Shown here: positions 16,780 through 29,925 of the stretch, piece after piece
Numbering within the stretch: the first letter of the stretch is position 1
Layout of the letters: each line of letters begins with the position of its first letter
NCBI GenBank assembly: GCA_965215885.1
Contig: CBDCEW010000104.1
Span: 256,001-320,000, forward strand
Direction: 5' to 3'
Length of the DNA stretch: 64,000 bases
From: Candidatus Moanibacter sp.
Lineage (GTDB): Bacteria; Verrucomicrobiota; Verrucomicrobiia; Opitutales; UBA2987
Notes under the pieces: generated by a model
Database searches by the model: none
What the model was told of the DNA's origin: nothing
What the model saw: the letters and a program-made list of their open reading frames with translations, nothing else
Made by a program: the position numbers and the translations under genes

Positions 16780-17790
16780 ATGGAATCAGATAAGAGGAGA
16801 ATGGCGTTGTATCTGCAGGATATGCACTCGCTGCAGGATGGAATTCGATATTGCCAGTACGCCGAGAAGAAAGGGTTTGAAGCCGTTTGGCAGGCCGAGT
16901 CGCGCCTCGTTCGTGATGCTATTGTGCCGATGGCTGCGTTTGCCGCTACGACGAGCAAGTTGAAGATCGGATCAGGTGTGATAAATAACTGGACCCGCAA
17001 CATTGGTTTGCTCGCCTCTACATTCCTGACTTTGGATGATCTGGCGCCGAATCGGGTGATGTGCGGGATTGGCGCGTGGTGGGATCCTCTTGCGGCGAAT
17101 GTCGGGATAAGGAGGCACAAGATGCTGAGGGCAATGCGGGAGACCATCGAGGTAATGCGGAAACTCCTGAATATGGAGACGGTTACTTATGATGGTGAGT
17201 TTCACAATGTAAAAGGGATTAAGCTGGATGTTGTGCACGGAAACACCGATCCGAGAAACGTCCCTTTGATGATCGGCGCTACGGGTCCGAAAATGCTGGA
17301 ATTGGCGGGAAAAATTGCCGACGGGGTGGTCTTGAACTATTGTGTCTCACCGGACTATAACGATCGTGCCCTGGAGTTGATCGAAAAGGGAGCTAAAGCC
17401 GCCGGGCGAACACTCGACGAAATCGACCGGCCACAACTCGTGGTCTGTTCAGTTGACAACGACGAAGATAAGGCCCGTTACGCCGCGAAATGGCTCCTTA
17501 CTCAGTACCTGGCGCAGCAGCCGCATATTGCCGAGGCGAGCAAAACCCCGGTAGATATTGTCGAAAAGATACAATCCATTCTCGGCTGGCCTGCTACAAA
17601 AGAGCAGGTGGAGAAGGCGATGGTGTTTGTTCCGGACGATCTGGTCGACCGCATCACCGCGAGTGGGACTCCGGATCAGGCGCGGGCCAAAGTCAAAGAG
17701 TATATCGACCATGGATGCACCTGTCCGATCTTATACCCGATGGCTGACGATGTACATGCCATGATCGATGCTTTTGCGGTGGAGGACTAA
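16780..17790 (+). CDS. Luciferase-like (LLM) oxidoreductase, probably F420-dependent (Mer-like fold)
   Basis: [54 protein letters not shown]; lies inside the cof operon. Confidence 0.85.
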
Positions 17791-17884
17791 GGAATCTGTC
17801 GGATTCAGCACCGTCGGAATCTCAACCTGTCACGTAGAAATCCGCGTAATAGGGATAATTAGAAAGCTAAGTCCGATCGATTCC
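17791..17884. mobile_element. MITE with imperfect terminal IRs GGAATCTGTCGGATTCAGC / GCTAAGTCCGATCGATTCC
   Basis: Inverted ends flanked by CTAA and TAG. Related ends recur at about 20954, 21002, 21305, 29634, 29657 and at the IS110 insertion site. Confidence 0.65.
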
Positions 17885-17924
17885 TAGAGTCTAATTGCAG
17901 GTTCTCAGATTCTACGGACGGATT

Positions 17925-18857
17925 ATGAGAGTTACAGTACTGGCCGGTGGAGTGGGAGGGGCGAAACTGGTCACCGGTCTGGCGGGGTTGCTCGATCCTG
18001 AAGACCTAACCGTCATCGGTAATGTCGGTGACGATGTCGAACTGCACGGTCTGTGGATCTCTCCCGACATGGACATCCTAACCTATTCGCTGGCCGGGGT
18101 GGTTGACCGAAAGAAGGGTTGGGGATTCGCCGACGAGACGTTCAACACGCTGGATGCAATGCAGCTTTTGGGTGAAGAAACCTGGTTTCTATTAGGAGAC
18201 AAGGATCTCGCTACGCACATATTCAGAACGCGCCTGAGAAGGGAAGGAATTCGCCCAACCGAGATTGCATTGCGAATTTCCGAAAGGTTAGGCGTAACCG
18301 TGCGCGTGATTCCTCCCACCGACGACTCTGTGCGCACGATTATTTTGACGGCTTCCGGGTGGCTGAATTTCCAGGAGTATTTTGTTCGTGAGCAGTGCGT
18401 TCCGGAAATTGAGTCGGTTGCGTATGAGGGAGCGGAAGAGGCGCGTCCAACATCCGAAACTCTCGCAGCGATCGAAAATGGTGAACTCATAATCATCGCT
18501 CCAAGCAATCCGGTGGCCAGTATCGGGCCGATTCTGGCCATACCGGGAGTTAAGAAAGCCATTAGGCAGTCACCTGCTCGTAAAGTATCCGTATCGCCGA
18601 TTGTGGGTGGACGCTCTTTGAAGGGGCCTGCCGACAGAATGCTGCAATATTCCGGCCTCGATGTGAGCCCGTTGGGAATAGCGAGGTATTATGATGGGCT
18701 CATTGACACAATCGTAATTGATTGTGTCGATACAGGGATGGAGGAGGCACTGAAAGCAAATGGTTTGCGTGTATTGACTACATCGACGATCGTGAATACA
18801 GAGTCAGAAAAACTGAGATTGGCAGAGTCGCTTCTCAACTTTTGTGGTGAATCCTGA
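17925..18857 (+). CDS. cofD: 2-phospho-L-lactate/EPPG:FO transferase CofD (FbiA)
   Basis: LAGGVGGAKL, NVGDD, ISPDMD, WFLLGDKDLATH, FQEYFV, APSNPVASIGPIL, VSPIVGG..KGPADRM. ATG at 17925 preferred over TTG at 17895. Confidence 0.95.
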   Translation: MRVTVLAGGVGGAKLVTGLAGLLDPEDLTVIGNVGDDVELHGLWISPDMDILTYSLAGVVDRKKGWGFADETFNTLDAMQLLGEETWFLLGDKDLATHIFRTRLRREGIRPTEIALRISERLGVTVRVIPPTDDSVRTIILTASGWLNFQEYFVREQCVPEIESVAYEGAEEARPTSETLAAIENGELIIIAPSNPVASIGPILAIPGVKKAIRQSPARKVSVSPIVGGRSLKGPADRMLQYSGLDVSPLGIARYYDGLIDTIVIDCVDTGMEEALKANGLRVLTTSTIVNTESEKLRLAESLLNFCGES

Positions 18858-19512
18858 AATGCCTGATCTCAACATTGTGGTGCCGATCAAGGCCCCCGGA
18901 AAAGCCAAGGAGCGGCTTGGTAACCTCCTTACGCGGCAGGAGCGGCGGAAACTCTCTCTCGCCCTGGCTGAGGAAGTCGTTGAGATCGTGACTGAACTAT
19001 CTCGAGACCCTCACGTTCTCGTTGTGACTGATTCTGAATATGTAGGGAGCCTCATAAAGGGAAAAAAAGCTACTGTTTTGTTGGAAGAAGAGGCGCTCGG
19101 TGAGACGCGCGCGATAGAGAGGGCAACTGAGTGGTCGATTGAGAATAAATTCAGGTCCCAGCTGGTCATACCGGGAGATTTGGCCGAATTAAACTCGAGA
19201 GAGCTGGAATTGTTGCTGAAGGAACCCAGACCATACCCTTCCCTGATATTGTGCCCGGCCACGGGAGACGACGGGACTAACGCCGTTCTTTCTACTCCCC
19301 CCGATGTGGTGAGGCATCGTTTTGGATCGAAATCTTTCGATGAGTTTAAAAAAAAGGCGTCGGAGAAAGATATACTTTGTAGGGTTTTGCGGATCGAGAG
19401 TCTTGTTCTGGATCTGGATACAGGCGATGACCTCGCCACGTTTCTGAAGAGGGGGCGAGAGAATCGCGTTAGCCGGCTACTGGAGAGTTGGGGCATTGAA
19501 GAGAGATTCTAG
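18844..19512 (+). CDS. cofC: Phospholactate/PEP guanylyltransferase CofC (FbiD)
   Basis: VVPIKAPGKAKERL, IPGDL, DDGTNA, FGSKSF, LDLDTGDDL. Start may be ATG 18859. Confidence 0.9.
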   Translation: MVNPEMPDLNIVVPIKAPGKAKERLGNLLTRQERRKLSLALAEEVVEIVTELSRDPHVLVVTDSEYVGSLIKGKKATVLLEEEALGETRAIERATEWSIENKFRSQLVIPGDLAELNSRELELLLKEPRPYPSLILCPATGDDGTNAVLSTPPDVVRHRFGSKSFDEFKKKASEKDILCRVLRIESLVLDLDTGDDLATFLKRGRENRVSRLLESWGIEERF

Positions 19513-20296
19513 AGCAGAGGAATATCCGCAGTGTCTCGAGATGCTGGGGATCTCCGGCATCCCGGATATCAAGGAGGATGACAGTCTACCGGAAATCCTG
19601 TTAGGTGCGATGCAAAGAAGCGGAATCCAGCTAGAGGATGGCGACGTGCTCGTTATGGCTCACAAGATTGTCTCGAAAGCGGAGGGGAGAGTATCCTTTC
19701 TGAGGGATGTGGAACCCTCCTACAGGGCCCGCCAATTGGGGAAAGAATTAAACAAAGACCCGAGGAAAGTGGAAGTGATTCTGCGTGAGAGTAATCGCGT
19801 TGTGCGCGCTCACCGGCACGAGGGAAAGTCTGATGGGGTACTGATCTGTGAGCATCGGTTGGGATTTATCTCAGCCAATGCAGGAGTCGATGAATCTAAT
19901 CTGTCTGCACCGGATTCTGTTCTATTGCTACCCGAAGATCCTGACAGGAGTGCCCAACAGATAAGGGATGCGATAAGGAAAAGAACGGGCAGGGATATCG
20001 GGGTGGTCATTACTGATTCTTTCGGAAGGCCCTGGCGGATGGGAATTATCAATGTCGCTATCGGATTGGCCGGTGTTCCGGCTCTGCATGATATGCGTGG
20101 TCAGGTGGACTCTTCGGGTCGGAGATTGAGCGCGACGACATTGGCTGTGGCGGATGAACTCGCTGCCGCATCGGGACTCATAATGAGAAAGACCGCGCGA
20201 ACACCGTGTGTCCTGATTAAAGGCTTGCCGTGGAGCCTGACCGAGAGTTCTGCTAGGGAATTGATTAGAGCAAGAAAAGAGGATCTGTTTTCATGA
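19496..20296 (+). CDS. cofE: Coenzyme F420-0:L-glutamate ligase CofE (no nitroreductase domain)
   Basis: [57 protein letters not shown]; 266 aa. Confidence 0.95.
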
Positions 20297-20988
20297 AAGT
20301 CGCGATTGTTGGGGGAACGGGACCGCAGGGTCGGGGACTTGCCCTTCGCTGGGCCAGGGCCGGTATCGATGTTCTGGTCGGATCGCGCAATGCGGAACGC
20401 GGCAGCCGGATTGGAGAGGAATTGAGGGCGCGGGTGGAGACCGGATTGGGTTCTGTTTCAGGTATGTTGAATGAGGAAGCTGTTAGAGCTGCTGATAAGT
20501 TTGTCGTAATCTCTGTTCCTTATGCAGCCCACAGGGCAACCCTTGAATCGATAAAAAGCTATCTCTCGGGGAAGATTCTTGTCGACGTGGTTGTACCGTT
20601 AGCAGAGGGCAATCCGAAGAAGGTGGTGATGCCCATGGAGGGGTCGTCGACCGAAGAAGCGCAGGCCATACTGGGTGATGAAGTGCCCGTAGTGGGAGCT
20701 CTCCATAACGTCTCCGCATACGTTCTCGGGCGATTGGATCTCCCCATCAATTGCGATGTTCTTGTGTGTGGGAATGACAAATCGGCTAAGGATGGTGTAA
20801 TCGAGCTTGTAGAGAAACTGGGAGTCACAGCTTATAATGCCGGCTTGGCGGAAAGCGCCCGGGCGGTTGAAACCCTCACAGCGATCCTCATCCGTTTGAA
20901 CATCTCAAGAGCCTATTCCTTTAAACACGCAGGGATCAGGATCTGGCCGGAGAGGAATTTGTCGGACCTTAACCCGGAAATGTTCTGA
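20293..20988 (+). CDS. npdG: NADPH-dependent F420 reductase (Fno/NpdG)
   Basis: [51 protein letters not shown]. Confidence 0.92.
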
Positions 20989-21326
20989 GATTTCCGGGTT
21001 TGGAGCCTGTTGGACTTTGGCGACTGGGCAGGTTTACTCCGTTTCCAGTGTAAAACAAGCCTTGCGCTCTTATTTTACATTTAACAAAAATGTAAAATAA
21101 AACCTAGGCTCTACTCTTCCCTGCGAGTACGTGTTTAGCGCTATTTGACGCTGCCCAGGCACAAGGACCGGGGCAGCCAGCAATCGAAGGTATGACGCTG
21201 AACAGGTACCACGGCTTGCCGGGATTAGGAAGATGTCTGTGGTCGAATCCCGCCGCAATGCACAGAAACACTCGGAGAGCGGAACGTTTCCAAGAATCTC
21301 GAAAGCTAAGTCCGACAGATTTCTAG

Positions 21327-21484
21327 CACGGACATTTCACAAACCATCTGCTGCGATCCCGGCAAGCCGGAACGACCTCAGAGGGTCAAAACACGCTTGT
21401 CGCCCGCCGGACTGCGTAAAGGCTTTGATACGCAGTCCCAGCAGGCCGTGACAGTCTCGCTACGAAGTGTGTGAAATGTCCGGG
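21327..21484. mobile_element. MITE with IRs C(A)CGGACATTTCAC / GTGAAATGTCCGGG, flanked by CTAG
   Basis: CTAG at 21323-21326 and 21485-21488. A further solo end GTGAAATGTCCGGGCTAG occurs at about 26552. Confidence 0.7.
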
Positions 21485-21488
21485 CTAG

Positions 21489-23252
21489 CTACATTCGCTC
21501 GAGGGTCTCGAGTCCGAGGAGATGAAGTCCCGTTTCAAGAATTGTGAGGGCGCGGGCACAAAGCATGAGTCGGCGATTGCGAGTAGGTAATTGGTCGACG
21601 ATGACCTTGTCTGAATTGTAAAAAGTGCTGAAGATACCAGCTAATTCGTAAAGGTAGGTAGAGAGGTAGTGAGGGCGCAGGTCGGCGGTTGCCTGATTAA
21701 GAGCGGTGACGAAGCCGACTATTTTCCGGGCGAGGGCAATTTCGTTGGCGGATTCGAAGTCCGAGTCAGATTCTGAAAGGTCATAGGGATCGATGTCGGC
21801 CTTGCGAAAGATGCTGTGTATGCGAGCGACAGCGTAGAGGAGGTAGGGAGCCGTATTTCCCTCGAGGCTGAGCATCCTTTCCCAGGAGAATTGATAGTCG
21901 CTGGTGCGGTTTTGCATAAGATCGGCATAACGAATGGCACCTAAACCGACCGCTTTTGCCACTCGTTTTCGCTCCTCCTCGCTCAGTTCCGGGTTCTTCT
22001 CCGTTACTACACGGAAGGCTCTTTCGACGGCTTCGCTGAGGAGGTCCTTGAGCTTTGTCTCTGAGCCTTCCCGAGTACTTATGGCTTTCCCTTGTTCAGC
22101 AAGTATTAATCCGAAACTGACATAGTGAAGATTGGGAATTTCGCTTTCCCTGGCTTTAAACCACTTTTGGGCGGTCAGAAAAAGCTGCTCGAAATGGTCA
22201 GACTGGCGCGAATCGACGACGTAAATGATCTCGTTCGCGACAAAGTGCTCGGCTCTGTAAAGGAGAGTGGCAAGATCGGAAGTGTTGTAATTGGCTGCTC
22301 CATCGGAGTTTCGTATGATAAAGGGCTGGTCCCGGAATCGCTTATGTTCAGGGTGGAAAACCACGAGGGCGCCTTCGCTTTCCACGGCGATGCGATATTT
22401 TGAGAGTTCTTCGTAAACCGTGTCTACTTTGTCGCGGTAAAAGCTCTCTCCGAGGACTTCGTCAAAGTGGATATTCAATTGTTGGTAAATCTCTTCAAAA
22501 GAGCGATAGCTGATGGCGTTGATACTCTCCCAGATCTTCAGGTTCTCCGGGTCCCCACGCTGGAGCTTGACTCTCTCATTACGGGCCACTTCGAGAGCTT
22601 CGGATTCATTTATCGTAAGGTCGTAACCCTCTCTATAGAGTTCCTCGATTGTATCAATGGAAGCATGGCGAATTCGAGAGTGATCCCATTTACGGCGTTT
22701 TATAGCCATAATGAAGATTCCGAATTGTGTTCCCCAGTCGCCGATATGATTGTCCCGAATCACCCTGGCTCCGCAGAATGAGAGCAGCTGATGGATTGCT
22801 TCTCCTAGTACCGTGGAACGGATGTGGCCGACGTGGAGTTGCTTTGCCGTGTTGGGGGAGCTGAAATCTACTACAACTGTCTTCCCACGGTAAATCTGCT
22901 CAGCGGCGTCTCTCAGATCGGTTTCGGTTTGGTATTTTTGGAGCCATTCCGTAATAAAAGCGGGAGTCAGCTGAAAATTAATGAAACCCGCACCCGCCAC
23001 TTCAAAGGAGAGATAGTCGGGATTGAGACATTCTGTCTCACTCAAGGACCTGCAGAGGTCTAATGCCGCCTGTCGCGGGTTGATTCTGTTTCTCTTCGCA
23101 TAGGGAAGGACCCCATTAGCCTGAAAATCGCCGAAACGAGGGTCCGCGGGGCGAATTGCGGGATCGAAGCTCTCATCGAATTGAGGAAGGGAATGGGCGG
23201 CGGTCGCCACAGCTTTGTTGAGTTCGAGGGCGATATTGAAACAGATTTCCAT
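21489..23252 (-). CDS. argS: Arginine-tRNA ligase
   Basis: DFSSPNTAKQLHVGHIRST (HIGH), DNHIGDWGTQFG, GNTAPYLLYAVAR. ATG at 23252 preferred. Confidence 0.96.
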   Translation of the reverse strand: MEICFNIALELNKAVATAAHSLPQFDESFDPAIRPADPRFGDFQANGVLPYAKRNRINPRQAALDLCRSLSETECLNPDYLSFEVAGAGFINFQLTPAFITEWLQKYQTETDLRDAAEQIYRGKTVVVDFSSPNTAKQLHVGHIRSTVLGEAIHQLLSFCGARVIRDNHIGDWGTQFGIFIMAIKRRKWDHSRIRHASIDTIEELYREGYDLTINESEALEVARNERVKLQRGDPENLKIWESINAISYRSFEEIYQQLNIHFDEVLGESFYRDKVDTVYEELSKYRIAVESEGALVVFHPEHKRFRDQPFIIRNSDGAANYNTSDLATLLYRAEHFVANEIIYVVDSRQSDHFEQLFLTAQKWFKARESEIPNLHYVSFGLILAEQGKAISTREGSETKLKDLLSEAVERAFRVVTEKNPELSEEERKRVAKAVGLGAIRYADLMQNRTSDYQFSWERMLSLEGNTAPYLLYAVARIHSIFRKADIDPYDLSESDSDFESANEIALARKIVGFVTALNQATADLRPHYLSTYLYELAGIFSTFYNSDKVIVDQLPTRNRRLMLCARALTILETGLHLLGLETLERM

Positions 23253-23471
23253 TTTGAATAGTAAGGAGGCTGTGGTAAATTGACCTGCCCCTATCACAGG
23301 GACACCCGAAGCCCTTGCAATAGAAGACGTTACGCTTTTCGAATAGGCTCCGAAAAGAGCGATTTAGGGCCGGTGGGACCAAAAAAGCTCGACATTCCTT
23401 TTCTTAATGACCTAATAATAAAAGGCTTACGCTCTTAGTTGCCTGTTTGATGGGATTAGAATCTGCCGACC

Positions 23472-24806
23472 ATGAGGAAGAAATATATATCCCCACGTAA
23501 GTTCATCAAGCCCTCGTTTGCCTATTTGATTGAAAAGAAGCGAGATGGCGGTGAATTTTCCCAGGAGGAAATTCGATATATCGTTGATTCGGTGATGGAC
23601 AAGCAAATGCAGCAATTCCAATTAGCCGCGATGGCCATGGCCATCTATTTTCAGGGGATGTCTGCGCAGGAGACGGCCACATTGGCGGAAGAGATGATGT
23701 TGTCCGGGGAAGTTATCGATTTGTCCAAAATCACGAAACCAAAGATCGATAAATACTCAACCGGTGGAGTTGGTGATAAGACATCCCTGGTACTAGCGCC
23801 GCTTGCCGCAGCCTGCGGAGTGGTTATGCCGATGATGAATGGAGTGGACGAGGAATTTGTTATTAGCAATCTGGATAAATTATCGGCGATTCAGGGATTT
23901 AATAAATCGATGGATCTCGAACAGTTTGTGAAACAGCTGAAAACGGTCAACTGTGCTATAATCGAACAGGATCCGCTGATCGCGCCGGTCGATGAAATTC
24001 TCTACAAGATGCGACAGAAGACGGCGACGATTCCGAGCCTGCCTCTCATTACGGGAAGCGTCCTAAGCCGTAAACTCGCTCAGGGCGCCGAGGGTTTGGT
24101 TATCGATGTAAAATGGGGAAACGGATCCTTCATAAAAGAAATCGAGCAGGCAAAACAGCTGGCGAGGTCAATTACGCGGGTGGGGCGTTCCATGAAGCGA
24201 CGCTGTGTCGCTCTTGTGACGGATATGAATCAGCCATTGGGAGATTGCGTGGGCACAGGGTTGGAGATAAAGGAAGCGATCGAGTTACTTAAGGGGGAAG
24301 GTCCCGCGGATTTGCAGGAACTAGTGTTGAAACTGGGAATGGAGATTGTCCGATTGGCCGGTGTGGCGGGATCCACGTTGTCGGCTAAACAGACGGTGCA
24401 GCGTCATTTGAGCGACGGATCCGCTCTGGGCCGATTTAAGCAGATGATTAAGGCCCAAGGAGGTAAGGCGTCGCTAGTGGACAATCCGGAGGAATTTCCC
24501 AAGGCTAAATACATACGCAAGTTGCCCGCTCCTAAAAGGGGATACGTGCATACGATTAATGCGGGTATGATCGCTCGAGGGGTACAGCTTCTCGCCCAGA
24601 ACAGAAGAGGAAAGTACGATCCGGCGGTTGGGGTATCGGAAATCAGAAAAGTTGGCACGCAAGTAAAACAGGGTGAACCGCTGATGATGATTCATTACAA
24701 CGATGAAGTTCGACTTGAAAGTGCCCTGGAGTATCTTCGCTCGGCCTATCGTCTCGCACCGAAGCGCCCGAATCCTCCGCAACTCATCGCGGAGAGGGTA
24801 GCTTAG
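23472..24806 (+). CDS. Thymidine/pyrimidine-nucleoside phosphorylase homologue with degenerate active-site motifs
   Basis: IEKKRDG, DKYSTGGVGDKTSL, LDKL, DVKWGNGSF, TDMNQPLG, GVSEIRKVG fold motifs; the glycine-rich loop is replaced (see findings). Confidence 0.85.
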   Translation: MRKKYISPRKFIKPSFAYLIEKKRDGGEFSQEEIRYIVDSVMDKQMQQFQLAAMAMAIYFQGMSAQETATLAEEMMLSGEVIDLSKITKPKIDKYSTGGVGDKTSLVLAPLAAACGVVMPMMNGVDEEFVISNLDKLSAIQGFNKSMDLEQFVKQLKTVNCAIIEQDPLIAPVDEILYKMRQKTATIPSLPLITGSVLSRKLAQGAEGLVIDVKWGNGSFIKEIEQAKQLARSITRVGRSMKRRCVALVTDMNQPLGDCVGTGLEIKEAIELLKGEGPADLQELVLKLGMEIVRLAGVAGSTLSAKQTVQRHLSDGSALGRFKQMIKAQGGKASLVDNPEEFPKAKYIRKLPAPKRGYVHTINAGMIARGVQLLAQNRRGKYDPAVGVSEIRKVGTQVKQGEPLMMIHYNDEVRLESALEYLRSAYRLAPKRPNPPQLIAERVA

Positions 24807-24949
24807 GAATCTTATAGTAGCTCCAGGTTATTCATCCAAGGGGCCGAGTGGAGCCGCAGGAAAAACTCGGCGAGGCCCCTTTGTGAATAACTTGGCCGAT
24901 CAGTGGTTGGCGATGGGTCAAAGAGTTTGTTTGGCTAAGGGTGCAAATA

Positions 24950-25116
24950 TTCAAAGGCAGCCGTCCACTACGAACTTAGGAATCAGTCCGAAGAGGACTT
25001 CCGACAGAATTTCGAGTGGACGGCCTGCCTGGATGACCGAAAACGAACACTCAGTTTACATCCTCATAACAGGATCCAACTATAAGGACTTCGCCTGGAC
25101 ATCCAGTGCCTTTGAA
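24950..25116 (+). ncRNA. Predicted IS110 bridge RNA (target-binding loop 24960-25024, donor-binding loop 25029-25106)
   Basis: Enclosing stem TTCAAAGGCA/TGCCTTTGAA. Two stem-loops, each CGAA-[guide]-hairpin-[guide]-TTCG, whose guides match the target and donor sequences. The true transcript probably starts further upstream. Confidence 0.82.
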
Positions 25117-25149
25117 AAAAGCAAAAAGACAAACTAAAGGAACAAAGGG

Positions 25150-26460
25150 ATGCAGAAAAGGGAAAAAACAAATCGATATAGTGTGGTGATAGGAATTGAT
25201 TGGGCGGATCAGAAAAACGATCTGTGGATCATAGAGAGCGAAACGGGAAAAGGGACCCATCGACAGGTGGCGCAGGATGCGGTCAGCTTGCACGAATTTG
25301 CCGTAGAGATGAGAGAAAAGTATGCCAGCGTGGGCAAGCGCATGGCCATGGTGGTGGACCAGAAGCGAGGAGGGTTGATCAACTTTCTGATGGGCTTGGA
25401 GTTTGTCGATATCTATCCAGTGCATGCGGCCAGGGCGAAGGATTATCGCCGGGCGCTGTATCCATCAGGGGCCAAGAGCGACCCGGTCGATGCGCAAATA
25501 CACGCGGAGTTTTTCCTCAAACATCCCGAGCTTTTTACCAAATGTTTCATACCTGACACGGCCCAAACACGGGAGCTGAACCTGTTGTGCGAGGACCGCC
25601 GTGGATTCGTCGATCAGGCTACCAGCCTCGAACAGCAGTTGGGCAGTTGTCTGAAGCAATATAACCCTTTGGTCTTGAAATTGTTCGATGATCTAGGCAG
25701 TGGCCTGTGCCTGCACTTTATATTGCGTTGGCCGACCCTCAAGAAGCTGCACAGAGCATCGGAGGGTGTCTTGCGAAAGTTCTTCTATAAGCACAACTGT
25801 CGCAGTGACGCCAAAATCCAGGAGCGTCTCGAATTGATCGGTAACGCACGAGCCTTGACCGAAGATGCAGCCATCATTGAAGCATCCAGCAGAAAAGCAC
25901 AGACGTTGGCCGGACAGCTTTTGACCCTGTGCCCGCAGATCAAAGCGTATGAGAAGCGTATCAGGGAGCTATTCAGAAGCCATCCCGATGCAGCCGTGTT
26001 CAGTGGCATTCCCGGAGCCGGCGAGGTCATGAGTCCCCGGTTGCTGTGCGCGTTCGGGACCGATCGTTCGCACTTCGAAACGGCCCAGAACATGACCCAG
26101 TGGAATGGATCCGCTCCGGTCACGATCAACAGCGGGCAGGACAAAAGAACCGGACAACCGAAACGAATGGTCAACTGGCGGTGGGCGGCTCCTACCTTCG
26201 TGCGGCAAAGTTTCGTTGAATTTGCCGAACATTCGATCCGAAACTGTGCCTGGGCAAAGGCCTTTTACCAGATCAAAAAAGAACAGGGCAAACCCCGCCA
26301 AACCATTCTTCGTGCCCTCGCTCTCAAGTGGACCCGCATTCTGTTTCGCTGTTGGCAAAATAGCGAACGCTACGATGAGCAAAAGTATCTCCAATCGCTC
26401 CAACGCACCGGTTCACCGGTGTGGAAAAGACTTCAGCAAGCAAATGCCAACGCCTTGTAA
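25150..26460 (+). CDS. IS110-family DEDD recombinase/transposase
   Basis: VIGIDWADQKND, AKSDPVDA (RuvC-like acidic residues), IPGAGEV, GSAPVTINSG (Tnp-domain Ser), WAKAFY, RALALKW. Confidence 0.95.
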   Translation: MQKREKTNRYSVVIGIDWADQKNDLWIIESETGKGTHRQVAQDAVSLHEFAVEMREKYASVGKRMAMVVDQKRGGLINFLMGLEFVDIYPVHAARAKDYRRALYPSGAKSDPVDAQIHAEFFLKHPELFTKCFIPDTAQTRELNLLCEDRRGFVDQATSLEQQLGSCLKQYNPLVLKLFDDLGSGLCLHFILRWPTLKKLHRASEGVLRKFFYKHNCRSDAKIQERLELIGNARALTEDAAIIEASSRKAQTLAGQLLTLCPQIKAYEKRIRELFRSHPDAAVFSGIPGAGEVMSPRLLCAFGTDRSHFETAQNMTQWNGSAPVTINSGQDKRTGQPKRMVNWRWAAPTFVRQSFVEFAEHSIRNCAWAKAFYQIKKEQGKPRQTILRALALKWTRILFRCWQNSERYDEQKYLQSLQRTGSPVWKRLQQANANAL

Positions 26461-26571
26461 ACACAACATGAGAAAAAACTCAAAAAATCCCTTGACGGAC
26501 TACCTCAGTTTTCTGTCGGTCTATACTGAGTCGGAATGTCGCTCTGTCACGGTGAAATGTCCGGGCTAGCA

Positions 26572-27129
26572 TCAGGTGCGTCCCAGATAGGAGCCGTCGG
26601 AGGTACTGACTTTGATGACATCGCCTGTTTTTATAAACAGGGGCGTCTGAACGACGATTCCGGTTTCGGTGGTGACTGGTTTAAGGGCGGCACTGGAAGT
26701 GTCACCTCGGACGGCGTCGGGTGCCTCCGTTACATTCAGTTCCACTGCTGAAGGGAGCTGGATCTGGACCGCCTGGTCTTCGACAAAGAGCACTTCGTAA
26801 AAATTGCCTTCGGAGAGGAATCTCCTGGAGTTCTCGATAAGTTCCTCGTTGAGAACCGTGTCCTCAAACGTCTCCGGGTTGAGAAAGTGGTAGCCCTCTT
26901 GATCGAGGTAGCTGAATTCTAATCGCTGCGTGTCGGTGACGAGGAATCGCACGGAATCGGTGTTGCGAAATTTCGTGGTTGTGGTGGTGTTTGACTGGAG
27001 ATTGCGCATCGTAACCTGGACGAATCCGGCCTGTCGTCCCTGGGTTCGATGAATCATATCGAGTACGAGGTGAGGCACGCTATTATAGTCTAGCACCTTT
27101 CCTTTACGAATTTCGGTTGGTGAAGCCAT
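26572..27129 (-). CDS. efp: Elongation factor P
   Basis: [51 protein letters not shown]. Confidence 0.95.
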
Positions 27130-29497: not shown

Positions 29498-29925
29498 GAG
29501 TCCGCTTTTCTCACGAATCCCTTTGAAGCCGTTCGGCTGATCGGAATCGTGGATTGCTTCGTCGTTCCTCCTCGCAATGACAGGGCTTTGTTTGGGGATC
29601 CCGCTCAGCTGGTTCGCATTCTGTCTTTAGGATGCTAAGTCCGACTGATTCCTGGTAGCCTGTCGGACAATGTATCTAAGAAATTCGCTCTTCCGTCGTT
29701 AGTTATTGGTGACAGAACGGAACATCTAGTGTATATAGAGACAGAGAAAGTAAAAGTGATCCGCCGTAGTTGTGCTGAGCGGGACATCCATCTTCATTCC
29801 GCCGAGACCCTGAGCTCGGGACTTCACTGCAAAAGGATGGCCAGGCAAAGTGCGGCTACCTCCGGAAAATGCACCGGAGTTTGGAACACATGTTGGCATA
29901 GTCCTCTCTCAGCTGAATAGGATAG

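Follow-up and report, generated by a model that had tools for sequence, protein, structure and literature searches.

How does an insertion sequence (IS) come to lie at one fixed position inside the terminal inverted repeat (TIR) of a short dispersed repeat? The question is raised by a 64,000-nucleotide stretch of the genome of Candidatus Moanibacter sp. (assembly GCA_965215885.1, contig CBDCEW010000104.1, positions 256,001 to 320,000), here called the window, in which an element of the IS110 group occupies positions 24813-26514. A preliminary description of the window had proposed that the guide RNA of this IS is programmed against an abundant, mostly intergenic family of MITEs (miniature inverted-repeat transposable elements). 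The evidence presented below indicates that the element is very probably an active or recently active, IS621-like IS whose guide RNA aims at the ends of these repeats. The genome of the window (G000) comprises 6.36 Mb in 105 contigs, with an estimated completeness of 90% and contamination of 5.5%. Related genomes were compared for the recombinase (41 genomes) and for the joint occurrence of the element and its target motif (13 genomes). Motif hits were counted in the window and in G000 and compared with the expectation from base composition, and in the window also with 100 shuffled sequences. In the sequences that follow, a slash marks the cut.

The element and its insertion sites

The recombinase contained two family domains (Pfam PF01548, E 1.2e-17; PF02371, E 2.3e-09), both of which passed the curated cut-offs. 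Its residues D17, D111, D114 and S328 were unchanged across seven relatives, and these may represent the catalytic Asp/Glu residues and the C-terminal domain's Ser. The non-coding ends measure 337 nt on the left, upstream of the gene, and 54 nt on the right. IS1111 belongs to the IS1111 group, whose guide RNA is carried by the right end; with its long left end and short right end, the present element has the layout of the IS110 group and not of the IS1111 group. The IS lacks terminal inverted repeats; each of its junctions shows a CT core, of which the empty site has a single one. The left junction is ...cTTAGGAATCT/TATAGTAGC... and the right one ...CTCAGTTTTCT/GTCGGtctatactga... (in short, ...AATCT/TATAGT...TTTTCT/GTCGG), the left flank running to ...gcTTAGGAATCT at 24812 and the right flank beginning with GTCGGtctatactgaGTCGGAATgtcgctCTGTCACGgtGAAAT at 26515. 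The element is situated between the TAG stop (24804-24806) of a thymidine-phosphorylase-like gene and the stop of efp on the opposite strand; therefore no gene is interrupted.

The empty site that can be reconstructed from these junctions is present as DNA in the public run X11, one contig of which (5438 nt) passes straight from window position 24809 to 26512, leaving out exactly 1702 bases. The ambiguity at the joint covers three letters, which the TCT on both sides would lead one to expect. The gapless alignment of the reconstructed empty site to the repeat copy at 17791 (GGAATCTGTCGGattcagcaccGTCGGAATctcaacCTGTCACGtaGAAAT), which had been reported in the preliminary description, was reproduced with 37 of 51 positions identical, counted by eye.

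Ten full-length copies were found in G000 at 99.5-100% nucleotide identity, besides a 211-bp fragment and a partial copy with which one contig begins, and the 436-aa recombinase frame was intact in all ten full-length copies. All 10 matches in a PF01548 search of G000 were this element, and the search revealed no other IS110 family aimed at other repeat sub-families. In element orientation, nine of the ten copies had AGGAATCT as their left flank and GTCGG(A/T) as their right flank, so the earlier expectation that each copy sits at the CT of the motif held for all full-length copies except one. The left flanks of the nine on-target copies all differed beyond about 10 nt. Seven right flanks start with GTCGGA and lead into the 'A' end of the ~97-bp repeat, the body of a different repeat, or a spacer resembling, to the eye, a tRNA-gene cluster; two, including that of the window, start with GTCGGT, the 'B' end. 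At least four different repeat bodies or contexts were represented among the right flanks. Two stretches may be relics of older or related elements: the 211-bp fragment of the recombinase gene (G000:C99:54428-54638; 97% identity), which adjoins a repeat end, and an 88-bp stretch (G000:C6:7714-7799) with 77% likeness to the left end's first hairpin.

The distribution of these flanks bears on two other explanations. The shared flanks might belong to a longer element with terminal repeats of its own and not to a target chosen by a guide, and copy-to-copy BLAST alignments do extend about 8 nt past each end of the 1702-bp unit. The joined flanks, however, form a 13-mer with 256 occurrences that hold no IS, they run on into different repeat bodies and genes, and the contig of X11 keeps them while lacking exactly the 1702 bases; empty and intact sites thus refute this explanation for practical purposes. 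Alternatively, segmental duplication or repeat-to-repeat recombination could have multiplied a single insertion, without repeated targeting. The copies on contigs C25 and C59 share a nearly identical right flank, because of which they may not be independent events, and the site of a copy on contig C84 is present twice. Such a spread is nonetheless very improbable as the general cause, given the different left flanks, the variety of right-flank contexts and the 23 loci of a related genome that repeat the pattern with other flanks (see below). In other data sets, further and different flanks break at the same bases, seen there as loose ends; the stretches of runs X1, X2 and X13 that lack contig cover, and the depth figures, do not enter into this evidence.

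The 13-mer AGGAATCTGTCGG occurred 256 times exactly in G000 against 0.2 expected from composition, an enrichment of ~1300-fold; 465 matches were obtained with up to one mismatch and 781 with up to two. Only 31 of the 256 exact sites (12%) lay wholly inside open reading frames (ORFs) of at least 150 aa, compared with 79% of the genome. Both the genome-wide enrichment and the mostly intergenic location supposed for the target were thereby confirmed. The window contained 11 matches with up to two mismatches, against 2.31 expected, a number reached in none of the 100 shuffles. These include 17790, 17873 (minus strand), 20953, 21312 (minus), 29641 (minus) and 24978, the last being the element's own guide. 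Repeat ends had been listed earlier at most of these places, and those at 17873, 20953, 21312 and 29641 were recovered; the ends listed near 21002 and 29657 are also present, as more diverged variants (GGAGCCTGTTGGAC, GGTAGCCTGTCGGAC). The commonest context of the exact sites was T-motif-A (124 of 256). Other 7-mers, such as TAGCAGC (38 sites) and CCTGAGC (16 sites), also stand before the constant half CTGTCGGA, which makes the motif a single branch within a wider set of repeat ends. No copy of this IS lies in any of the other branches in G000.

The predicted bridge RNA and its guides

The left end was predicted to fold with -122.5 kcal/mol (z-score -6.08), and none of 100 shuffles folded as well. 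The core of the fold consists of a basal stem and two arms (Table 1). The left guide CTTAGGAATC in the first arm has the top-strand sense of the sequence left of the cut, over 8 nt (TAGGAATC) at most sites and over 10 nt at the site in the window. TCCGACAGA, the right guide, complements TCTGTCGGA across the cut and to its right, over 9 nt at GTCGGA sites and over 8 nt at the GTCGGT of the window; the right guide accordingly fits the repeat consensus one base better than the site used, as had been stated before. In the second arm, CTCAGTTTAC agrees with the right end CTCAGTTTTC at 9 of 10 positions, and the ACTATA within CCAACTATAAGG is the complement of the left end TATAGT. Computationally, the left end thus encodes a two-loop RNA with one loop complementary to the target on both strands and the other to the donor ends.

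Two observations concern the same stretch. An ORF of 84 aa at 24883-25137, within the left end, had no Pfam match and overlaps the predicted RNA, and it is probably not a gene. The target loop at 24975-25010 is more like the palindromic 35-bp repeat form than pairing would need: its AGGAATCAGTCCG fits the 13-mer at 11 of 13 positions and was picked up as a motif match, which may be chance or a clue to the origin of the guide.

Table 1. Positions of the IS110-group element, its predicted RNA and promoter-like parts, and the repeat ends in the window.
Feature	Position	Strand	Remarks
IS110-group insertion sequence	24813..26514	+	1702 bp counting one CT core
Recombinase gene, 436 aa	25150..26460	+	DEDD_Tnp_IS110 (residues 14-173) and Transposase_20 (residues 283-374)
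Left target half TAGGAATCT, ending in the CT core	24804..24812	+	TAG is the stop of the thymidine-phosphorylase-like gene 23472-24806
Right target half (GTCGGT...), then truncated repeat body	26515..26570	+	Reaches the stop of efp (26572-27129, minus strand)
TATAGT, -10-like hexamer at left end	24813..24818	+	Read from the sequence; conserved in the G006 element
TTGACG, -35-like hexamer in the 54-nt right end	26492..26497	+	Read from the sequence
Predicted bridge RNA core: basal stem and two arms, each containing an internal loop topped by a short hairpin	24950..25120	+	Fold of the 337-nt left end
Predicted target-binding loop, arm 1	24975..25010	+	Left guide CTTAGGAATC (24975-84) and right guide TCCGACAGA (25000-25008), separated by the hairpin AGTCC-GAAGA-GGACT
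Predicted donor-binding loop, arm 2	25050..25087	+	CTCAGTTTAC (25050-59), hairpin ATCCT-CATAAC-AGGAT, then CCAACTATAAGG
Intact ~97-bp repeat copy, AGGAATCTGTCGG ... CCGATCGATTCCT	17790..17885		Directly after the TAA stop of a luciferase-like monooxygenase gene
Repeat end variant AGGAATTTGTCGG, 1 mismatch	20953..20965	+	Motif search
Repeat end variant AGAAATCTGTCGG, 1 mismatch	21312..21324	-	Adjoins a second repeat type with TIR GCTAGCCCGGACATTTCACA (~21321-21490)
Repeat end variant AGGAATCAGTCGG, 1 mismatch	29641..29653	-	Motif search

A related element with a changed guide

Besides G000, one of the 41 related genomes had recombinase matches of this kind, about 25 at 79-80% identity: G006, from another genus of the same family (8.3 Mb in 3 contigs). 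Among protein sequences, relatives at 70% and 59% also came to light. A phylum-wide search of 401 genomes yielded besides only relatives at no more than 44% identity, in 7 other genomes, and searches of genome contigs for related loci, with the protein and with a 7-sequence alignment, gave no confirmed relative. The element and the motif occurred in the same 2 of the 13 related genomes searched (G000 and G006), and neither was found in the other 11. The G006 element is 1714 bp long and 80% identical in DNA sequence. Its left end was predicted to fold into the same two-arm architecture, with two compensatory stem changes from G000 to G006: the hairpin AGTCC/GGACT (here the slash separates the two strands of the stem) is replaced by AGTCG/CGACT, and an A-U pair of the basal stem by G-C. 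Between the two elements, right guide and donor loop hardly differ, and the left guide is TTAGGAGGC in G006 compared with TTAGGAATC in G000.

Twenty-three loci were examined in G006, where 20 left and 22 right junctions were readable. The left junctions were CTAGGAGTCT (17 cases), CTAGGAGGCT (2) and CTAGGAGCCT (1), all of the form CTAGGAG(T/G/C)CT, and none of the 20 was of the GGAAT type used in G000. The right junctions were GTCGGAC (20 cases), GTTGGAC (1) and GTCTGTA (1). Intact TAGGAATCTGTCGGA sites numbered 222 in G006 and 124 in G000, intact TAGGAGTCTGTCGGA sites 198 and 4, and intact TAGGAGGCTGTCGGA sites 50 and 1; the first two kinds were absent from the other 11 relatives. If sites in G006 were chosen blindly, the chance that all 20 would be GGAG-type is about 6e-6 (0.547 to the power 20). 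All 20 junctions being of the GGAG type despite 222 GGAAT sites, the A-to-G change in the guide goes with the sub-family that is used. To judge from these sequences, the guide tracks the repeat sub-family, and the guide rather than the protein would set the choice of site.

A recombinase that reads the repeat end directly, with the complementarity of the RNA loops being incidental, is the alternative to be weighed at this point. Computational evidence alone does not separate protein from RNA, a stem-loop encoded in the target is reported to add specificity for ISPpu10 (10.64898/2026.03.19.712850), and in many of the ~97-bp copies TAGGAAT...ATTCCTA can form at end A, surrounding the cut. Against it, the target loop spells both halves of the site on the strands expected of a bridge RNA, the donor loop spells the ends of the element, and in G006 the guide base and the sub-family change together with 222 GGAAT sites left unused. 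We therefore consider direct reading by the protein quite unlikely and favour guidance by the RNA. The earlier proposal that the bridge RNA targets an abundant repeat is borne out by the fit of the guides to both halves of the site, by the nine copies at the motif and by this covariation in G006.

A mechanism of the following kind is suggested. By the example of its family, the element would excise as a circle, and its joined ends would place TTGACG-N17-TATAGT across the junction; this arrangement is conserved in the G006 element and, by analogy only, may represent a junction promoter of the circularised form. The bridge RNA would come from the 337-nt left end, and its donor loop would pair with the element's own ends. 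Its target loop would pair with both strands of TAGGAATCT/GTCGGA, one guide having the top-strand sense and the other being its complement. Recombination at the CT core would put the element inside the TIR of abundant, mostly extragenic repeats, and insertion there would thus offer hundreds of near-identical, low-cost landing sites. Site choice would be set by the guide, so that the G006 relative, with one guide base changed (GGAAT to GGAG.), would use the matching sub-family only.

Several observations weigh against this interpretation, in addition to the shared flank of C25 and C59 and the doubled C84 site. The solved transposase chains of ISCro4 and IS621 matched the recombinase weakly (E ~1e-4, C-terminal domain only); in the weak alignment to ISCro4, ...INSGQD... 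of the query stands against ...YESGSS... and AKSDPVDA against SKTDAVDA. Rfam, searched over 24600-26700 with E up to 10, returned three chance-level hits and no bridge-RNA family. Production of the RNA, its binding by the recombinase and formation of the circle are argued by analogy to IS621 (PMC11208160). Because the assembly has 105 contigs and an estimated contamination of 5.5%, some of the copies may be strain variants. One compared stem position is broken in G006 (C-G to C·A). The G006 guide also mismatches its target at the base adjacent to the core (G versus T) in 17 of 20 junctions, so the pairing is not perfect, and a mismatch there would evidently be tolerated. The same core-adjacent position is mismatched between donor guide and donor in both elements, and for IS621 position 7 of the left donor is described as the mismatch-tolerant one (Durrant et al., PMC11208160).

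Finally, one of the ten copies in G000 is not at the motif. This tenth copy lies on the minus strand at G000:C84:54652-56353 (locus L005, 1444-3145), with a partial second occurrence at G000:C84:1-491, and its junction is also a loose end in run X13. It breaks a long open frame of at least 121 + 481 codons, neither half of which matched a Pfam family. The site, CACCTCAGTTTACT/TATGGGGAGC (in short, CCTCAGTTTACT/TATGGGG), has nothing of the target motif and looks like the joined ends of the element itself, CCTCAGTTTTCT/TATAGTAGC. The left half of the site agrees with the donor guide CTCAGTTTAC at 10 of 10 positions, better than the real right end does. Insertion at sites matching donor half-sites alone is reported for IS621, where 47% of the non-target insertion reads are explained in this way (10.64898/2026.08.31.748434). 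The C84 copy looks like a natural case of such a donor-half-match off-target.

The targeted repeats, related systems and significance

The repeats are short, mostly extragenic and very numerous, with TIRs of 13-15 nt. Of 205 inverted pairs in G000, 105 span 90-99 bp, 14 span 80-89 bp, 14 span 60-69 bp and 31 span 30-39 bp. The ~97-bp form is the commonest and has a non-palindromic body (consensus from 120 aligned copies); a ~65-bp form also occurs. The 31 shortest copies are palindromes of 32-35 bp, the size of repetitive extragenic palindromes (REPs), for example AGGAATCTGTCGGACCCTAAGTCCGACAGATTCCT, and in some of them the changes in one arm are matched in the other. A target-site duplication was not seen: the same 4-mer stood on both sides in 12 of 128 pairs, and in 11 of these it was the palindrome CTAG. 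One end of the pairs is mostly preceded by TAG and the other by AAG or CAAG, and AG...CT forms part of the repeat in 97 of the 128 pairs. Repeat ends were also seen to abut or supply stop codons, as in TAA/GGAATCTG (window 17788-17802; the slash here divides stop and repeat) and in the TAG of TAGGAATCT.

No autonomous element with the same ends was found in G000, where inward-facing ends showed no recurrent spacing of 500-4000 bp, although the draft could hide a single copy; the partner IS looked for on the strength of the preliminary description did not appear. About six 'pairs' of ~1625 bp, considered as such a partner, proved to be the IS110 element's own guide together with a far repeat end. 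The designation as MITEs was sustained by the TIRs, the small size and the dispersal of the repeats, but not by a target-site duplication or an autonomous partner. The statement that they differ in class from REPs was not borne out, as 31 copies are REP-sized palindromes. Each of the two labels lacks a hallmark, and we therefore call these sequences short TIR-bearing repeats; 'MITE' and 'REP-like' are both candidate labels, neither of them established.

In one alternative, the repeats are palindromes of the REP type, or of the REPIN type (REP doublets forming hairpins), moved by a tyrosine transposase of the REP-associated (RAYT) type, and not MITEs derived from a DDE-type IS. The REP-sized copies with their matched arm changes, the lack of a visible target-site duplication, the AG...CT within most pairs and the failure to find an autonomous element all speak for it, as do 29 Y1_Tnp matches in G000, about a dozen of which lie in frames of ~330-400 aa. 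None of the 15 Y1-type frames examined, however, had the motif on both sides (within 700 nt, up to three mismatches), and the commonest form, with its ~97 bp, 13-15-nt TIRs and non-palindromic body, is MITE-like. The RAYT-type origin is accordingly a real possibility that we would lean against. Y1_Tnp (IS200/RAYT-type) matches numbered 75 in G006; the frames in G000 include nine near-identical ones of 152 aa, and the longer ones are diverse.

The short TIR-bearing repeats sit in mosaics, edge to edge with other short repeats, and most modules begin or end with CTAG. Among these other repeats are a unit with ends GCTAGCCCGGACATTTCACA (window 21321-21490), a neighbouring repeat also at 26554-26570, a ~175-bp unit with ends AAGAAAATGAACCTGAGATTTG (49 copies), and units with ends CTAGCAGCCTGTCGGAC (38 sites) or CTAGCCCGGACATTTCACA. 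G000 is unusually loaded with mobile DNA, with 519 repeated regions of at least 500 bp in the 6.4-Mb assembly. An element of ~1945 bp, for example at G000:C4:19584-21524, occurs at about 130 other places (each copy gives ~131 self-BLAST hits); it ends in CTAGACC(TT/CC)AT(C/T)CGAAAAGC on either side, and its ORFs encode 425 and 160 aa. Elsewhere in the window, positions 16780-20988 hold a cluster related to coenzyme F420, with a luciferase-like monooxygenase, CofD, two further ORFs and an F420-dependent NADP oxidoreductase.

The IS621 element of Escherichia coli is reported to use a two-loop bridge RNA and to home into REP sequences (Durrant et al. 2024, PMC11208160), and the parallel drawn to it in the preliminary description was upheld. 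The two elements have in common the domain pair, the long non-coding left end, a predicted two-loop RNA that spells target and donor, the CT core and insertion into an abundant extragenic repeat. They differ in that the proteins are distant (E ~1e-4) and the present one, at 436 aa, exceeds the 328-residue chain of IS621 in length. There the target is the E. coli REP, and here it is AGGAATCT/GTCGGA at the tip of the TIR. The right guide has 9 nt here, whereas for IS621 an extension of the pairing between right target guide and right target (RTG-RT) from 4 bp to 7 bp is described (PMC11208160).

Homing into repeats is reported for other members of the wider family. All copies of ISPpu9 and ISPpu10 in Pseudomonas putida are described as lying in one repeated extragenic sequence (PMC12288879; 10.64898/2026.03.19.712850); these are likewise IS110-family elements homing into one extragenic repeat, in another host phylum and with another repeat. 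In Coxiella burnetii, 20 of 21 copies of IS1111 are associated with QMITE2, a small repeat with MITE-sized and REP-sized versions, as reported by Wachter et al. 2018 (PMC5896051). The likeness lies in a wider-family member that homes into such a repeat; the Coxiella target is given as a GTAG REP inside the MITE, whereas here the cut is inside the TIR itself. IS4321 and IS5075, as cited in PMC11208160 and PMC5896051, home into the terminal repeats of Tn21-type transposons. There, too, one mobile element is inserted at a fixed position in the TIR of another; the hosts are large transposons of the Tn3 family and the IS have subterminal inverted repeats, in contrast to the 35-100-bp repeats and the IS110-group element of the present case.

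It is conceivable, though we put the chance at somewhat below even, that this IS110 lineage and a lineage-specific superfamily of repeats with ends CTAG-NNNNN-CTGTCGGAC diversify together. The right guide would read the constant half, and point changes in the left guide would retarget the element to whichever sub-family is expanding (GGAAT in G000, GGAG. in G006), with the core-adjacent base tolerated and the base before it decisive; insertion may also disable the repeat copy.

Targeting of repeats and MITEs by IS110 and IS1111 elements is already in print, and knowledge of the mechanism is unchanged by the present case. The findings extend repeat-homing elements with bridge RNAs to a little-studied verrucomicrobial lineage, for whose ArgS the closest named matches belong to Puniceicoccaceae/Opitutales (58-59% identity). 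They include what looks like a natural donor-mimic off-target insertion, of a type recently described for IS621 in the laboratory, and the 17 of 20 G006 junctions offer a natural read-out of mismatch tolerance at the core-adjacent position. The added value lies in the paired genomes, which point to a natural case of reprogramming: two elements of 80% identity, differing in one decisive guide base, use different sub-families in genomes that hold both.

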